Source of the DNA: a virus
Direction: 5' to 3' (one strand)
Virus record (IMG/VR): IMGVR_UViG_3300020048_000110
Length of the DNA: 64,000 nt
A program made the position numbers and the translations under genes. Each line of letters starts with the position of its first letter. Positions within the stretch are counted from its first letter, which is position 1. Positions 3,001-61,356 of this stretch are shown here, piece by piece. The notes beneath the pieces were generated by a model, which made no database searches, was not told the DNA's origin, and saw nothing but the letters and a program-made list of their open reading frames with translations.

Positions 3001-4925
3001 TCTTAGTTACAGCAATGGAACAAGCAGATCTGACACCTTTCAATTACTATTTCTATAATAATATTGGAGATAACCCAAAGTTTTATGTTAGTTATGAAAT
3101 ATCTAAGGATTTTGAAGCAGACAGTCAATTTTTTCCAGATATTCAGTATAATTATACTTTTGATAATGCGAGAGTTGTAAACTATTTTGGAGTGGATTTT
3201 ACGGCTAGTGGAAAGTATATTTCACCACCTAATAAGTTCTATTTGTATTATTACGGAGTACCAAACTATTTAGTTGAAACACGTATAAATACAAACTTTA
3301 GATACGCAGGTAAAGAGTTAAGAGATAACTTTTTTCCGCAAGTAGGAGATTTATCAAAATGGACACAAGAAAAGAATGTTCCTATAAATGAACCAGAAAC
3401 ATTTAACTATAACAATAGCTATTCAAAACAGACTAGTTTTGTAAGATCTAGAGTTTTCTCAAACACCTACAAAAAGGAAATAAACGATAAGACTCAAAAT
3501 TTACCAAACGGAGTAATCTCTAGTCTTTCAGATTCATCAGAGAATTCTACTATGGATCCTTGGTTAATATATAGGCCATTTGATTTATTTGAGTTCCCAA
3601 CTAACTTTGGAAAACTTAAAGACATTATAGACATTGAGAGCCAAGCAGTTTTAGCCAGATTTGAAAATACTTCTATGCTATATAATAAAGTAGATAGTAA
3701 GATAGATGACGGATCAACACCTACTTCTGCTTTCTTTGGAGGATCATCTTTATGGCAAAGAAGACCTATAACTTTTAACAATACGGATTTAGGTTATGGA
3801 GGTACACAAAACTTTGCAAAGATCTCTTGTGAATATGGACATTTTTGGGTAGATGCAAAAAGAGGACAAGTTCTTACAGTACAACCAAATGGAGGTACAA
3901 TGGAAGAAATATCTTCAGTAATAGGAGGTAAACCTAGCGGAATGAGAAACTGGTTTAAAGAACACTTACCATTCAAAATTCTAAAATACTTACCACATGT
4001 TAATACAGATAACCCATACAACGGAGTAGGTATAACAATGGGATGGGATAGTAGATACAGAAGAGTTTTTATAACTAAAAAAGATTACATTCCAAAGAGT
4101 TGTGTTGACTACGTACAAGGTAAAGGATTTGTATATAAACCTGCAGATTGTGATGGAAGTCCTACAGCGGAGCCAATCGCAATAGAAGCTGGAGATCCTC
4201 AATATTTTGAAGATGTATCATGGACAGTTGCTTACTCTCCAGTAATAGGTTCTTGGTTGAGCTACTACAGTTTCACACCAAACTATTACATAGGGCATAA
4301 CAACTACTTCCAAACAGGAATAAATAGTATAGTAAATACAAATGAGAATGGTCTTTGGTCACACCTCTTAACAAACAAATCTTACCAAGTTTTTTATGGT
4401 AAAAAAGAAGAGTTTATTTTAGAGTATCCAGTACAAGGAGATTATACTGAAAAGTATATAAACAACATAGAACTTTGGACTGAAGCAAAGAGATACCATA
4501 ATGATTACGACTACTACACTAATCCTGGGATTACGTTTAACAAGTCTGTACTCTATAATACAATACATTGCTCAGGAACGCTTAATCTAGTGCCGTTAAA
4601 AACGAACTATATGAGTGCAAAAGACTTCCCTAAAACTAACCTAAATAACACACAGGATATAGGTATAAGAACAGGAGGAACTTTAATCTGGACTTATGAT
4701 TATTTTTATAATAGAGTAAAGAATGGTACTAGTAATATACCATTTTTAATACAAGATTCAAATCAAATTAAGAAATATGTGAACAGTCAGATAGTGAGTT
4801 TTAAAGGCAAACCTCTACTTGAAAGGATGGTAGGAGATTGGTTTTTAAACAGACTTACCTACGATAAAGATAGTAGGTATAGTTTAAGTTTCATATTTTC
4901 TATCACAGATACTTCTAAAATTTAA
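1..4925 (+). CDS. Giant virion, tail or ejected structural protein. The ORF is open to the window edge, so it is 5'-partial and longer than 1640 aa
   Basis: The frame starting at nt 3 has no stop upstream of the ATG at 96. The protein is rich in N, T, Y and S and looks beta-rich, with no recognisable catalytic motif. It is the first of nine consecutive giant + strand ORFs. Confidence 0.6.
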   Translation, partial: KLTFEAPNESLVFCNFFNDTYEDCSENPFEGMVDDNGFPICNTPTIIGTELVVSRVVGEQTTKVEKVFPTEYTRITTQKGCNLYKKDPKTDDFIQDPTNPLGYDPDAPIGSPAKPTPIPVYLRDSDFTNENCSYASDITQIAKVTSNTAIGYFNNYYFEDIAKELLINKTATFVDYVEEITFKDATPGPTSGDLTVTIGVSTFTQTYTTTPTASALAFFTAHKAAIETLTGGVVTISGPKVTITDSTLAYVDSVITTGNLEYEFKTNGGFTKKIHKGALWFNLDFNGKTDLILDIAKQKDSEGDDDISVGSQVRISIFKSCSDSNAIYSKVIDLNSPSIYKIKKASSTSLNLVIEDETTGLTPIVITNGWNLTEKYYIAVDCPLVKTEIDTDPLGVQITGGIPPTYTYNRDFKDVFYTSPTDGCYTITKRAVEIKRIDVTWDSIELVKNIKMQATCTLKQPILQNCKAIAYRKGDFAYWESTETYPDNNELYNSSLLDIKPADLSGLTIEEIAKFESTFTDGIELDGNYKWKESEKIEGDISSLQPVVDYTCRPIRHFKFPDNKIAPYTYNSLQVNFNKSAIFPLGITLNESVILKFLDVAVKNELLSSEDRNKIKSYEIFRGDLNLNRSIVASGILFDMRSYKENEKDVLYTNYPFNSYSDDKFNLDSSNKPLVTPNFGESNYNYTFHSPETDYYKPTIPSELSIQGFLFGNSRGNVEEVLKHPKWVILGDVARSDAGDLATLEVFAEVTIIIANAAIQASHTYETSFFAFVAGAGGAASTTSNIAGATTSGIALGAIAFLEIAESVVYKWGKYRYEWLKIFRDLGTPNNFAYYYHAEGFYNFLRNDIHTEGDSLRGLNITKYIKDARYTTLNEVTPESITINNIDREYSVFLSTGKNNSISYPDYYKKYDSLPNNSSITYLGENGIASSKKSPEIVKPIASPYVHLKNYIPSQHGTINSIKWLSTGFRSNFNNTGCLSIFGGDTYISRHTVKRKKPQFLVTAMEQADLTPFNYYFYNNIGDNPKFYVSYEISKDFEADSQFFPDIQYNYTFDNARVVNYFGVDFTASGKYISPPNKFYLYYYGVPNYLVETRINTNFRYAGKELRDNFFPQVGDLSKWTQEKNVPINEPETFNYNNSYSKQTSFVRSRVFSNTYKKEINDKTQNLPNGVISSLSDSSENSTMDPWLIYRPFDLFEFPTNFGKLKDIIDIESQAVLARFENTSMLYNKVDSKIDDGSTPTSAFFGGSSLWQRRPITFNNTDLGYGGTQNFAKISCEYGHFWVDAKRGQVLTVQPNGGTMEEISSVIGGKPSGMRNWFKEHLPFKILKYLPHVNTDNPYNGVGITMGWDSRYRRVFITKKDYIPKSCVDYVQGKGFVYKPADCDGSPTAEPIAIEAGDPQYFEDVSWTVAYSPVIGSWLSYYSFTPNYYIGHNNYFQTGINSIVNTNENGLWSHLLTNKSYQVFYGKKEEFILEYPVQGDYTEKYINNIELWTEAKRYHNDYDYYTNPGITFNKSVLYNTIHCSGTLNLVPLKTNYMSAKDFPKTNLNNTQDIGIRTGGTLIWTYDYFYNRVKNGTSNIPFLIQDSNQIKKYVNSQIVSFKGKPLLERMVGDWFLNRLTYDKDSRYSLSFIFSITDTSKI

Positions 4926-58215: not shown

Positions 58216-58527
58216 AAAGTAGGGAGATTTCGCTCTCCCTAGGCGTGGTTAAGCTGCAATCCTTTGCACCCCACCAATGTTAAAAACGTTGCCGTTTGTG
58301 TTTAAAGTATATTCTCCTTATTACCTACTTATTGCCAGTCAAAACCAGTCACCCCCATAAAAGATTGTTTAAAGTACAACCAGTAAAACTTATAAGGTCA
58401 ACTGATAAATCAGTAGACTCCACCAGACTGTTTCTTAATTCAAGCATACAGACAAACAAACGTGGAGGTGCCGAGAGTCGAACTCGGGTGTTGGTCAACT
58501 TCAATAATATATCAACGAACTACTTCG

Positions 58528-58675
58528 TAATCAGGACAGGACTCGAACCTGTAAATAAGAGAGGTCACTTAACACTAATGGGACTCATACCATTACCCTC
58601 TGTATTGCCATACCGTGTTGCGTCTACCACGAGCAGGGACACCCCACTCCTTTCGCCACCTGATTATTTACTTGT
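58528..58675 (-). ncRNA. Oversized tRNA-like element E1, about 148 nt, homologous to E2
   Basis: 5' AATCAGG pairs with 3' CCTGATT. It has the GGTGGCG...GTGGTAGACGC D-arm with an inserted hairpin GGGGTGTCCC. At the 3' end, ACAGG-TTCGAGT-CCTGT forms a T-arm. Confidence 0.4.
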
Positions 58676-59007
58676 CTTTCCAAGTTGTCAATCCGTTTTA
58701 ATCTCTCGGTGGACCTCCCATCAACCTACATACAGATTACAGTTGTAGATATTTTATCTATAATCCTCTGTCTTTCCAGTGTCCACAACTTATGTGTTAG
58801 CCTCACACATCAATCACTAGGTTGTCAGCTTTGCAACCAAGACAGGATTTGAACCTGCAACCCTTTCTGCCTTTCGACAAAATGTTATACCTCTTTAACT
58901 TACTTGATCTCCAGGTACTCTATAAGCTACTACCCTTGGAGCTACGAATCGTATCATTGAATCTATTCTAGACTAGAGACAACAACATCTTATAGAGTTT
59001 TATTTCG

Positions 59008-59123
59008 TGATTGAGACAGGACTCGAACCTGTAATTCATACTGTTAACTATATGGTGTGTTTATACTTCACACTCTGCTTTTACCCTCTTCGGGTGTGTG
59101 TCTAGCCGTTTCACCACTCAATC
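59008..59123 (-). ncRNA. Oversized tRNA-like element E4, about 116 nt
   Basis: Acceptor GATTGAG / CTCAATC (7 bp). D-arm TG-GTG-AAACGGCTAGA-CAC. A 66-nt insert with hairpins ACCCGAAGAGGGT and GTGTGAAGTATAAACACAC. T-arm ACAGG-TTCGAGT-CCTGT. Confidence 0.4.
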
Positions 59124-59217
59124 ATTTCCCCTCGGGTGAGGGCACTCGTCAGTTTCGGTAGCATCCCCTAGACTACTCTAATTAAATCAAAGTAGATGGG
59201 GTCGAACTGTAAATACC

Positions 59218-59519: not shown

Positions 59520-59668
59520 TTGTCAGGACAGGATTCGAACCTGCAATTGTGGATTTCCAAGTAAGGACTCGTATGGGCTTTTTCCATTCCACACCCACGA
59601 TGAAACTATCCTTATCTTTTTGCGTCTACCACGTCAGGGAGAAACCCCTAACCTTCCGCCACCTGACT
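59520..59668 (-). ncRNA. Oversized tRNA-like element E2, about 149 nt
   Basis: AGTCAGGTGGCGG-AAGGTTAGGGGTTTCTCCCTGACGTGGTAGA-CGC ... GCAGG-TTCGAAT-CCTGT-CCTGACA. The D-loop carries a GGGG..CCC hairpin as in E1. It is alignable with E1 over its full length. Confidence 0.4.
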
Positions 59669-59894: not shown

Positions 59895-59915
59895 TTTTAT
59901 TTAATTTAAAGTTAG

Positions 59916-60002
59916 TAGTCAGAACAGGATTTGAACCTGTATTGTTGAATTACCCAGCTTCAACTGCATAAGTATAGCGTCTACCAATTCCGCCACCTGA
60001 CT
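59916..60002 (-). tRNA. Class-II-type (Leu-like D-arm) tRNA or tRNA-like gene, 87 nt. I could not fold a canonical anticodon arm
   Basis: AGTCAGG-TG-GCGGAATTGGTAGACGC matches the bacterial tRNA-Leu D-arm, which I recall as GGUGGCGGAAUUGGUAGACGC (not checked here). It has a GTTGAA/TTCAAC hairpin with a 9-nt loop, T-arm ACAGG-TTCAAAT-CCTGT and acceptor 3' strand TCTGACT-A. Confidence 0.5.
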
Positions 60003-60009
60003 ATTTTTC

Positions 60010-60550
60010 GCTAATGTTAAAAACTGATTCAATCCTCCTAAAACACATTAACTTGGTACTTACTCTATATAGGCTCCCCAATCCTTTATATATCTTTACC
60101 TGAAACTTCTTTGGGTTGTTGATTGACCACTCCCACTTACTCAAGTAGTTTTTATTTAGCACCCTTTCTTATAGCTTACCGAGTTATCAGTTACGGAGCT
60201 TGTATAAGAGTAGGGTCACGTAGCTATACTAAATGTAAGGGTCTCTTACTAACTACTTGCTGAGAACTCATTTGTGTTAGTCTTTACTAGTTGTCGCAAC
60301 AACCTTGTAGCCACTCTATTTTCCTTTCTCAAGGGAACAACACATCTACCATTACTGATAGTATCTTTATGTAAAGTAGTCGCTCGAGGGCCTTTACTCC
60401 TATGGAGACTCAAGTGTTATTTTTAAGTTACCGACTTTTTACAAAGGATCAATGTTTAGCCTTTTATTAAAGCATTCTAGCTACATTGGGAGAACTGCCT
60501 TTCCCACGTTATTTAAGAGTATATCTTGCAGCGTATCTCACTAGGTTATG
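60010..60550. ncRNA. Candidate structured non-coding RNA: 540 nt with no ORF over 30 aa on either strand, and more GC-rich than its surroundings
   Basis: No ORF in six frames. It lies next to the tRNA-like cluster and is flanked by - strand genes. Confidence 0.25.
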
Positions 60551-60552
60551 CT

Positions 60553-61356
60553 TTATTTTACATTCTTTACAAACGGTAAACTACTTCCGGCAAATGTTGT
60601 TGGTAATACACCATTCCATTTGTTGATTGCTTTTTCTTGCATAATCTCTGCTGTTAAACCTCTTGAACGGATAACCAACTGTTCGGTTTTTAGTAACTCT
60701 AATTCATTCTTCTTACGTTGCTCTGAAATCTGTTGATCAAGTACTGAGATATTAGTATTTACTTCATTCCTACTATCAATCTTAGCTTTTACTTTGCTAG
60801 AAAAATCTAAATTCAAACTGAAACTCACTAATTCTAAACCAGCTTTATCAAATTCTTTCTTAACAATATCTTGAACATATTGTTCAAATTTTAAACTGCC
60901 ACCATTAACCATTAATTGGTCAGTAGTATAACCTCTTGAAGCTTCTTTAATAATATCATAAATTCTAGGCTCTAGTACGTTATCTTGTAGTGCAGTCATA
61001 AAATCTGATCCTGATCCTAACCTTGCGTTTTGGAATACTACATCTACTACTCTATTTTCCATTACTTTAAAAGAATAAATAGGTTTTGATGTGAATGCGG
61101 TATTATCTGCCGCTTTGATCTGCAAAACTCTGTCTGTACCCTCATCAGTAGTAAACTGCCCTCTTTGTTCCCAGGCCGGTACTTGAAATAACTCTGTGCC
61201 CGGTGGGAAGGTGCTAACCTTACCTTGTTGTTTGGTGTAATCAGATTTACCATTTTTACCATAATCTTCCATTAATACACCATAATAATTTGGTGCCACT
61301 CTCTCACAAGAAGTTAGTAATACAACTCCTAAAACCAATAATGCTAATTTTTTCAT
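60553..61356 (-). CDS. SPFH (band-7 / prohibitin-like) domain lipoprotein
   Basis: Signal plus lipobox LLTSC. The central region is consistent with the SPFH fold and has a C-terminal coiled coil (EQRKKNELELLKTEQL). Confidence 0.45.
   Translation of the reverse strand: MKKLALLVLGVVLLTSCERVAPNYYGVLMEDYGKNGKSDYTKQQGKVSTFPPGTELFQVPAWEQRGQFTTDEGTDRVLQIKAADNTAFTSKPIYSFKVMENRVVDVVFQNARLGSGSDFMTALQDNVLEPRIYDIIKEASRGYTTDQLMVNGGSLKFEQYVQDIVKKEFDKAGLELVSFSLNLDFSSKVKAKIDSRNEVNTNISVLDQQISEQRKKNELELLKTEQLVIRSRGLTAEIMQEKAINKWNGVLPTTFAGSSLPFVKNVK

Follow-up and report, generated by a model that had tools for sequence, protein, structure and literature searches.

The window analysed here, a 64,000-nt stretch of viral DNA, very probably carries on its minus strand, at 60156-60464, a gene for a highly structured RNA in which eight helices (H1 to H8) are joined by invariant segments, with one hairpin capped by a GNRA loop and a likely pseudoknot. 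The wider reading of this locus, as the gene for a stable, trans-acting non-coding RNA of an undescribed family that acts in the way proposed below, is favoured, though not strongly. Its functional part, which names the translation or RNA-processing machinery as the target, is a tentative inference, and nothing shows function. Comparison of relatives shows that compensatory changes have preserved the predicted fold across about 140 phage contigs, and the family occurs widely among environmental relatives of the crAss-like phages. Large structured RNAs of strong conservation but unknown function are rare, and RNase P, tmRNA, group I and group II introns, OLE, ROOL and GOLLD each opened new biochemistry.

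An ORF-free stretch at the head of an RNA gene cluster

The window is phage DNA. Its plus strand codes for giant virion proteins, and its minus strand has the genes for replication and nucleotide metabolism, with DNA polymerase, DnaB helicase, thymidylate synthase, RNR and a small protein resembling crAss001_48; the structural and giant virion proteins give only distant matches to flavobacterial phages. A sequence-only reading of the window had picked out some 540 nt next to a tRNA-like gene on the minus strand as free of ORFs, with stops in all six frames and a GC content above that of the flanks, and had proposed that it encodes a large structured non-coding RNA. The descriptive part of this reading is borne out. 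At 658 nt, 59895-60552 is the longest part of the window that has no ORF of at least 70 aa on either strand, the next longest being the adjacent tRNA cluster (469 nt); within 60003-60552 no ORF exceeds 54 aa, and TAA, TAG and TGA stops occur in six of six frames. The rise in GC content is genuine but small (0.369, compared with a window mean of 0.324 and a standard deviation of 0.028 for 550-nt windows, which is the 93rd percentile). The tRNA-like gene does adjoin the stretch (Table 1), and its anticodon region is aberrant. As for the RNA itself, conserved blocks and compensatory changes uphold a structured RNA, but one of about 310 nt and not 540 nt.

A 2.3-kb cluster, made up of tRNA-like genes, small ORFs, tRNA-Met and a sequence like a permuted tmRNA, starts with the RNA gene, which has the same sense as the neighbouring tRNA genes. 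The tmRNA models RF00023 and RF04321 match at 58249-58520, outside the RNA element. A terminator scan of the minus strand from 61356 to 58241, that is from the SPFH gene into the cluster, found no terminator-like site, and the tRNA-like gene at 59915-60002 is inferred to be probably co-transcribed with the RNA gene.

Extent and architecture of the RNA

Read on the minus strand, the RNA gene consists of invariant sequence blocks interleaved with hairpins whose length varies among relatives. Six blocks, YUAAACAUUGA, AUAAAGAUAC, CUUGAGAAAG, AAUGAGUUCUCAGCAAGUAG, ACGUGACCC and GGGUGCUAA, lie in this order at 60156-60458, and the element that these six ordered anchor blocks delimit in 62 full-length relatives has a length of 255-498 nt (median 338 nt). 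A covariance model of the RNA core, R1 (139 positions, 34 pairs), has its sole match in the window at 60155-60374 (105.7 bits, E 5e-18).

Table 1. Features of the RNA gene and its immediate surroundings (window coordinates; motifs given as RNA)
Feature	Coordinates	Strand	Remarks
SPFH/Band-7 gene	60553-61356	minus	267 aa, Pfam PF01145; borders the ORF-free stretch, 5' of the RNA gene
5' flank, SPFH stop to H1	60465-60552	minus	Outside the conserved family; similar in L093, L058, L089 and L105 only
Whole conserved RNA gene	60156-60464	minus	About 309 nt, single copy; anchored blocks in 62 full-length relatives
H1 hairpin	60444-60463	minus	Near-invariant loop YUAAACAUUGA; 4/4 pairs changed on both sides (GG/CC to CC/GG and others)
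H2 stem	60371-60442	minus	GUAAA with UUUAC; 5/5 pairs changed on both sides; 93% of cells paired
J2/3	60362-60370	minus	Conserved single-stranded block within (C)AUAAAGAUAC; columns invariant or nearly so in alignment A1
H3 hairpin	60346-60361	minus	GNRA tetraloop cap (GUAA); 6/6 pairs changed on both sides; 99% of cells paired
H4 long-range stem	60273-60344	minus	5' strand 60338-60344 (UGUGUUG), 3' strand 60273-60279; encloses H5 and H6
H5 hairpin	60321-60337	minus	UUCC-CUUGAGAAA-GGAA; 4/4 stem pairs changed on both sides
H6, variable hairpin region	60280-60320	minus	No sequence conservation
Invariant 20-mer AAUGAGUUCUCAGCAAGUAG	60253-60272	minus	Exact in 104 IMG/VR stretches
H7 stem	60220-60256	minus	GUAGUUA with UAGCUAC, variable interior; 95% of cells paired; 2 pairs with two-sided changes, 4 with one-sided G-U changes
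J7/8, GUGA	60216-60219	minus	Last two nucleotides (G-A) invariant, first two (G-U) at least 90% conserved (A1, A2)
H8 stem	60162-60215	minus	CCCU with AGGG and UCUUAU with AUAAGA, internal loop, variable interior; 7/10 pairs with two-sided changes
3' tail, UGCUAA	60156-60161	minus	Central CUA invariant; flanking U and G and final A at least 90% conserved
3' spacer, RNA to tRNA-like gene	60003-60155	minus	Conserved in close relatives L089, L009, L047 and L105 only; no Rfam match
Downstream tRNA-like gene	59915-60002	minus	ARAGORN: 88-nt 'tRNA-His(atg)'; Rfam tRNA 37.2 bits

The loop block of H1 was seen by blastn in more than 35 loci. H2 encloses a variable insert (60376-60437) that is 7-122 nt long among relatives, and one pair of H3 appears as U-G in 28 cells of the alignment and as G-U in 6. 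In the long-range stem H4, two-sided changes affect six of the seven pairs and pairing is kept in 99.3% of cells, as when UGUGUUG/CAACACA is replaced by ACGUGAG/CUCACGU; the last H4 pair is a G-U wobble in the window copy and G-C in most relatives. The H5 loop, UUGAGAA (60326-60332), is nearly invariant and provides the 5' strand of the proposed pseudoknot, the 3' strand of which, UUCUCAG (60260-60266), lies inside the invariant 20-mer. Between the H5 loop anchor (UUGAGAAAG) and this 20-mer, a span that takes in the end of H5, H6 and the 3' strand of H4, relatives have 32-120 nt. A two-sided change in H8 is exemplified by CCUUAAUCAUUA with UAAUGAAGGG. Base pairs are defined for H1-H5, H7 and H8. 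The window copy forms every listed pair, two of them as G-U (in H3 and H7) and one as U-G (in the pseudoknot). Beyond the 3' tail, conservation persists in close relatives only.

Compensatory changes and the proposed pseudoknot

Fifty proposed base pairs were scored in an alignment (A1) of the 62 full-length relatives. They are paired in 94.2% of cells, compared with 38-49% for structures slid by one to three columns. Changes on both sides were found for 34 pairs (233 cells), and none of 500 column shuffles reached any of the five measures. Aligning relatives for covariation, a check that the sequence-only reading had suggested, thus gave a strongly positive outcome in both conserved blocks and abundant compensatory changes. 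The RNA sense must be the minus strand, because many of the U-G and G-U cells would be A-C mismatches on the opposite strand. Inter-block lengths are spread evenly modulo 3 among relatives; a decayed or recoded protein gene is ruled out, as all three stops occur in every frame and the indels have no 3-nt periodicity. The folding energy of the single sequence, computed for both strands and for the trimmed element, is no better than that of shuffled sequences (z = -0.28 to -0.46). The case therefore rests on covariation and is comparative, not thermodynamic.

An H-type pseudoknot between the H5 loop and UUCUCAG is likely but thinly supported. The two strands are complementary over seven positions and 97.7% paired; however, the central pairs are almost invariant, and this is why support from covariation is thin. 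In the first set of relatives the pseudoknot block had been fixed by the search, and the second set was found by way of a different block. The independently found set contains one compensatory change in the pseudoknot, from G-C to A-U (L161). Three one-sided changes keep the pairing, among them U-A to U-G and U-G to U-A. Disruptive changes are almost absent from uninterrupted copies of the standard type; partial, interrupted and variant-core copies deviate at the terminal pairs of the pseudoknot.

Distribution among phages

A blastn comparison of the region with 29 loci that share the SPFH gene gave matches on the minus strand only. These were short blocks, identical at up to 100% of positions, with unrelated sequence of differing length in between, and such a pattern is the signature of a structured RNA. 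The block AATGAGTTCTCAGCAAGTAG is present exactly in 104 IMG/VR stretches and a second block, ACGTGACCCTACTCTTAT, added 41 loci; in total, 147 loci have the element. Exact 20-mers are kept whilst the adjacent SPFH protein drops to 42-87% identity, and the RNA is conserved far more strictly than the neighbouring proteins. Only 12 of the 29 SPFH-syntenic loci contain the RNA, which must therefore be dispensable in some relatives.

Bacterial and archaeal genomes (596 Gb), scanned with a 17-mer, yielded 15 matches, no more than expected by chance, and three loci amongst these, on two MAG contigs, have further blocks and match R1. Cellular genomes are thus essentially without the element and its distribution is restricted to phages. 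Amongst GenBank phages, Cellulophaga phage phi14:2 is the only carrier.

A transcribed homologue in Cellulophaga phage phi14:2

The phi14:2 (Crassvirales, Steigviridae) homologue lies on the plus strand at NC_021806 2911-3359. All conserved blocks and helices are present, and R1, from whose seed alignment this sequence is absent, scores it at 72.7 bits. At about 450 nt it is the longer variant and has one more hairpin (UAAUCCUGAAUUGACAGGAU) as well as an insert in front of H3. In RefSeq it sits in the gap between g004, which ends at 2904, and g006, which starts at 4602. The GenBank record KC821624 has three tiny antisense 'hypothetical proteins' over the region, later removed by RefSeq; the present analysis corrects that annotation, in that the three small ORFs over the RNA are spurious.

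The g004-g005 and g005-g006 intergenic regions of phi14:2 give rise to abundant early transcripts, at levels above those of most mRNAs (bioRxiv 10.1101/2020.03.07.982082). These transcripts stay high late, unlike other early transcripts (Drobysheva et al., bioRxiv 10.1101/2020.03.07.982082), and the region was called a "long non-coding RNA" of unknown function, a term applied to whole intergenic regions with unmapped ends (bioRxiv 10.1101/2020.03.07.982082). The reported transcription has the same sense as the element. By its blocks, helices and match to R1, the phi14:2 locus belongs to the same RNA family as the window element; the phi14:2 paper deals with intergenic transcription only and gives no boundaries, structure, conservation or family (bioRxiv 10.1101/2020.03.07.982082). 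Of the two regions, the first contains the RNA element and the second a tmRNA-like gene (4031-4502), some 670 nt downstream of the element, which was called by ARAGORN and scores 46.0 bits with Rfam, just below the gathering score of 47.

RNA-seq had been put forward in the sequence-only reading as a further check, and transcription is indeed documented, in the literature and for the homologous phi14:2 locus only. The findings that would have refuted that reading, namely a region that is neither conserved nor transcribed, or one that is merely a promoter region, were not made. In the sole cultured system examined, the RNA locus is among the most abundant phage transcripts. As phi14:2 and Cellulophaga baltica are available as a cultured pair, together with an RNA-seq data set, the function of the RNA is directly testable.

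Catalogued RNA families

Rfam 15 was scanned at gathering score over the window and at E≤10 over 3 kb and the 341-nt element; 36 related loci were also scanned, 13 of them permissively (E≤1). No family matched the element in any scan, and the scans picked up nothing but tRNA, tmRNA and unrelated group I introns. Since tRNAs, tmRNAs and group I introns were detected in the related loci, the negative result is not a technical failure. At the sensitivity of Rfam, GOLLD, ROOL, HEARO, group I introns, RNase P RNA and tmRNA are excluded. The candidates that the sequence-only reading had named for comparison (GOLLD, ROOL, HEARO and group I/II introns) were all negative in the Rfam scan. Its remark that an RNase P P4 motif and tmRNA features are lacking agrees with the scan of the region, which gave no match to either.

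GOLLD (RF01998) gave no match at gathering score, at E≤10 (3 kb and 341-nt element) or at E≤1 (13 homologous loci), nor did ROOL (RF03087) in the same scans. HEARO, the IscB omega RNA (RF02033), was likewise without a match, and the HNH ORFs found in some relatives are NUMOD4+HNH_3 homing endonucleases of about 130-180 aa and not IscB/HNH-RuvC ORFs. The group I intron model (RF00028) matched neither the window nor the homologues, with positive controls of 51.6-90.9 bits in L184 and L050; the sequences that would have to be exons belong to complete genes, SPFH on the upstream side and tRNA-like or tmRNA on the downstream side, and are not the same from phage to phage. RNase P RNA (RF00010/RF00011) had no match at E≤10, the P4 sequence GGAAAGUCC and the motif ACAGAA..GGCUUA are absent, and manual mapping of P4 and CR-I/V failed. 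The tmRNA models match genes beside homologues, as they do the sequence in the window cluster, and never the element. The literature on crAss-like and Cellulophaga phages held no described family beyond the phi14:2 transcriptome remark, and no later paper was found. Barring that one-line remark, the RNA family is apparently undescribed in Rfam 15 and in the literature searched.

Genomic neighbours

A tRNA or tmRNA gene lies within 600 nt downstream of the RNA, on the same strand, in 13 of the 62 copies (a tmRNA in seven), and some of the tmRNAs start about 40-100 nt past the element. In about eight of the 62, a tRNA or tRNA-like gene is placed directly upstream and ends 2-5 nt before H1. Adjacency to tRNA or tmRNA thus holds for about one-third of copies. 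No tmRNA was found at the Rfam gathering score in 17 further loci; the linkage is frequent, but an obligatory linkage to tmRNA is unsupported. The neighbourhoods of the 147 loci revealed no consistent protein partner, SPFH being present in 17 and others in fewer.

Possible antisense targets of the H1 loop and the 3' tail within the window were no more numerous than expected by chance. The H1/H2 region was considered as a Bacteroidota -7 box (TAnnTTTG) and rejected, as variants without the TA retain pairing. A scan for sigma-70-type promoters, with a tool that does not cover Bacteroidota promoters, found nothing in the element on the minus strand.

A homing endonuclease cassette within the RNA gene

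In at least three lineages (L153/L166/L175/L179, L151/L184/L190 and L182), the RNA gene is interrupted inside the invariant 20-mer, between GAGUUCUC and the A that follows it, by a cassette of 390-680 nt; the uninterrupted sequence at this site is GAGTTCTCAGCAAG. The cassettes of the two larger lineages contain a NUMOD4+HNH_3 homing endonuclease gene of about 130-180 aa, recognised by Pfam, and in the shorter L182 insertion no ORF was detected. The cassette also contains a terminator-like hairpin and another, diverged H3-H4-H5 core, whose loop is GUAUGAGAUAU (a UGAGA loop). Immediately after the cassette come (G)UUCUCAGCAAG and the regular 3' half of the RNA gene. R1 matches both halves of the interrupted genes. 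GAGUUCUC is repeated directly at both ends of the cassette, the non-coding parts amount to about 125-175 nt, and Rfam recognised no group I intron in it.

The short non-coding parts, the direct repeat and the absence of an Rfam group I match favour a free-standing homing endonuclease that carries a cleavage-immune replacement core and leaves the recipient's 5' half behind, although the cleavage specificity is inferred and a novel intron is not excluded. Homing endonucleases typically target highly constrained sequence, and an endonuclease directed at this segment fits with the segment being under stronger constraint than any other part of a functional gene. Free-standing homing endonucleases occur in phage RNA-gene clusters, an example being SegB in the tRNA cluster of T4. 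The present cassette resembles the T4 SegB type in the combination of a NUMOD4/HNH_3 gene, in or beside a conserved RNA gene, with a diverged and presumably cleavage-immune allele; it differs in interrupting the RNA gene itself and in carrying a replacement 5' core of its own. It would thus be a case of a homing endonuclease that targets a non-coding RNA gene whilst supplying a substitute core.

Possible function and alternative explanations

How the RNA acts can at present only be inferred. It would be made within the phage tRNA/tmRNA gene array, and its release by the tRNA-processing nucleases RNase P and RNase Z is probable. In several phages the RNA starts 2-5 nt past a tRNA 3' end, and in others it has a tmRNA or tRNA within about 40-100 nt downstream. 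The invariant unpaired and pseudoknot nucleotides may serve as a core, binding or catalytic, through which the RNA contacts some conserved component of the host. The likeliest target is judged to be the machinery of translation or RNA processing because of the neighbouring tRNA and tmRNA genes and the early timing, and the RNA could then aid phage takeover, or the protection, of translation beside the tRNAs and tmRNA. More specifically, the RNA may represent a new class of large functional RNA peculiar to Bacteroidota phages, a ribozyme or RNP core that, along with the phage's own tRNAs and tmRNA, reprogrammes or protects host translation or RNA processing from the first minutes of infection; this remains speculative. 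If it is true, activity or binding would reside in the invariant pseudoknot core, which is also the target of the homing endonucleases and the replacement half-gene that they bring.

Other roles for a structured RNA can be imagined. It could be a self-assembling 'ornate' RNA of the ROOL, GOLLD or OLE type, a multi-copy scaffold or cage without a catalytic or base-pairing target. Occurrence in phage genomes, a place beside tRNA genes and high abundance would be a shared habit, the pseudoknot strands could pair between molecules too, and the T-loop-like and GNRA motifs on variable arms are typical of tertiary and quaternary contacts. However, the element has no similarity to these families and is half their size or less, and multimerisation is only conjectured; this role is unlikely. 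That the RNA is a ribozyme or the domesticated remnant of a self-splicing element, with a pseudoknot core that cleaves or ligates and HNH versions that are mobile ancestors or true introns, is quite unlikely, even though the invariant junction nucleotides resemble a catalytic core. The cassettes lend this idea some weight, as they occupy an identical site in each lineage and place a second diverged H3-H4-H5 core, with its UGAGA loop, directly before UUCUCAGCAAG. Yet the Rfam group I model that finds true introns in L184 and L050 finds neither the RNA nor the cassette, whose non-coding parts are too short for a group I core and whose terminal repeats suit recombination better than splicing. Flanking exons are also lacking, the tRNA-like genes upstream and the tmRNAs downstream being complete.

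The position of the element at the head of the RNA-gene cluster of the window, on a strand without a terminator-like site from the SPFH gene (61356) to 58241, would suit a cis-acting role, be it as leader or processing platform of the tRNA/tmRNA array downstream or of the gene upstream, or as no more than a promoter region. Such a role is very unlikely in view of neighbours that vary widely between phages (ORFs, tRNAs, tmRNA or nothing), and the phi14:2 transcript remains abundant, unlike other early mRNAs. Eight covarying helices over some 300 nt are not promoter-like, and a sigma-70-like promoter is missing from the minus strand of the element. A location in the replication module (with DNA polymerase, helicase and RNR) and an AT-rich composition might suggest a DNA-level element such as a replication origin or packaging site, if not a decayed or recoded protein gene. 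Neither is credible: among the compensatory changes are many G-U cells, which make valid pairs on just one of the strands, the homologous locus is transcribed in phi14:2, and the stops of three kinds in every frame and aperiodic indels speak against a protein gene.

Comparison with known RNAs

A stable, trans-acting RNA of a separate family, the preferred reading, has points in common with several known systems. With RNase P RNA and tmRNA the element shares a size class of about 300-400 nt, a place among tRNA genes and, if the proposed pairing holds, a long-range pseudoknot, but it has no match to their models and no P4 or CR-I/CR-V, and the same phages have a separate tmRNA gene. Like group I introns, it has a core that is probably pseudoknotted, invariant junctions and, with some copies, an HNH homing endonuclease. 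In contrast to group I introns, its order of helices, with H4 enclosing H5 and H6 and a proposed pseudoknot that involves a hairpin loop, has no correspondence to P3-P9.

The setting is that expected of GOLLD, with the tRNA-like gene 153 nt downstream in the window and tRNA or tmRNA adjoining about one-third of relatives. GOLLD and ROOL are roughly 580-800 nt in size. Like them, the RNA described here is a large multi-helix RNA of unknown function that has variable arms and a likely pseudoknot and that occurs in phages or prophages, often beside tRNA genes. It departs from them in size, at about 310-450 nt, and in hosts, which are Bacteroidota with phages of the Crassvirales type.

Insertions and variable arms of the RNA gene

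The conserved RNA gene is interrupted in several relatives by a NUMOD4/HNH_3 homing-endonuclease cassette, which lies within the invariant block, between GAGTTCTC and the A that follows. Upstream of the cassette the original 5' half of the RNA gene is kept, and the cassette itself carries a replacement H3-H4-H5 core (helices of the RNA), which is diverged. In L158, a related phage locus, the same site holds a 33-nt insertion that separates AAATGAG from GTTCTCAG and forms a small two-hairpin expansion; this junction therefore tolerates insertions. Genuine group I introns are also present in related phages, in other genes (Rfam 51.6-90.9 bits, above gathering), with a third, weaker match (27 bits) in L184. 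Elsewhere, the variable arms of homologues contain inserted hairpins with T-loop-like sequences such as GUGGUUCAAAUCCAC and CAGGUUUGAAUCCUG (L011 and L085 in H7, L030 in H8, L099, L048), which suggest tertiary-contact modules.

Features of the window and of related phage loci
Feature	Source	Coordinates	Strand	Remark
Cassette-interrupted RNA gene	L153	3655-4454
Cassette-interrupted RNA gene	L184	12325-13210
Cassette-interrupted RNA gene	L166/L179, L151, L190, L182, L175
Group I introns	L184	9468-10120, 8614-8765	-	Rfam
Group I intron	L050	5769-6047	-	Rfam
Flank of RNA gene	Window	60003-60155	-
5' flank of RNA gene	Window	60465-60552	-
Over-long tRNA-like genes	Window	59915-60002, 59527-59668, 58527-58665	-	Family, 88-142 nt
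Additional tRNA matches	Window	59008-59123, 58834-58909	-	Rfam only
Non-coding stretch	Window	59130-59210	-	GC-richer
tmRNA-like sequence	Window	58249-58520	-	Permuted
phi14:2 gp007-gp009	KC821624.1	3106-3431		Antisense to RNA

Flanks and neighbouring RNAs

Conservation of the two stretches flanking the RNA gene in the window is limited to the closest relatives (L089, L009, L047, L105; and L093, L058); they might serve as leader, spacer or promoter. The 5' flank holds a hairpin, UGGGA-AAGGCAGUUC-UCCCA. Two non-coding modules recur directly 5' of H1 in relatives (L005, L018, L031, L052, L055, L096, L120, L133; and L047, L055, L112, L121, L008, L018), one a hairpin of ~50 nt (AUAGCUAAGCUGUGUAAAGC...GAAGCUAU) and the other a block of ~90 nt (AGUGGUCUUACAUCCAC...UGGUCUCUGAUGUUAGAGAAC...), and these may be additional small RNAs.

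The over-long tRNA-like genes, with further members in L030, L044 and L125, are nearly identical in the acceptor stem and in the T arm (AGUCAGG ... CAGGUUCGAAUCCUG ... CCUGACUA); their interiors differ, are non-canonical and lack a proper anticodon arm, and in one of them ARAGORN forces a 49-nt 'intron'. These genes could encode tRNA-scaffolded RNAs, or they could act as processing signals. ARAGORN made no tRNA call at either additional Rfam match, the first of which spans 116 nt with a large insertion. Between this 116-nt gene and a small ORF lies the non-coding stretch, for which no match to anything was found.

Flanked by a long tRNA-like gene and tRNA-Met, the circularly permuted (two-piece) tmRNA-like sequence scores 44.8 bits (E 6e-07) against Rfam tmRNA_permuted, slightly below the gathering score of 47, and was not called by ARAGORN.

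In Cellulophaga phage phi14:2, RefSeq dropped gp007-gp009 in June 2020, and the homologous RNA is still without annotation there; these three 'hypothetical proteins' of 34-39 aa in the GenBank record are almost certainly spurious ORFs.
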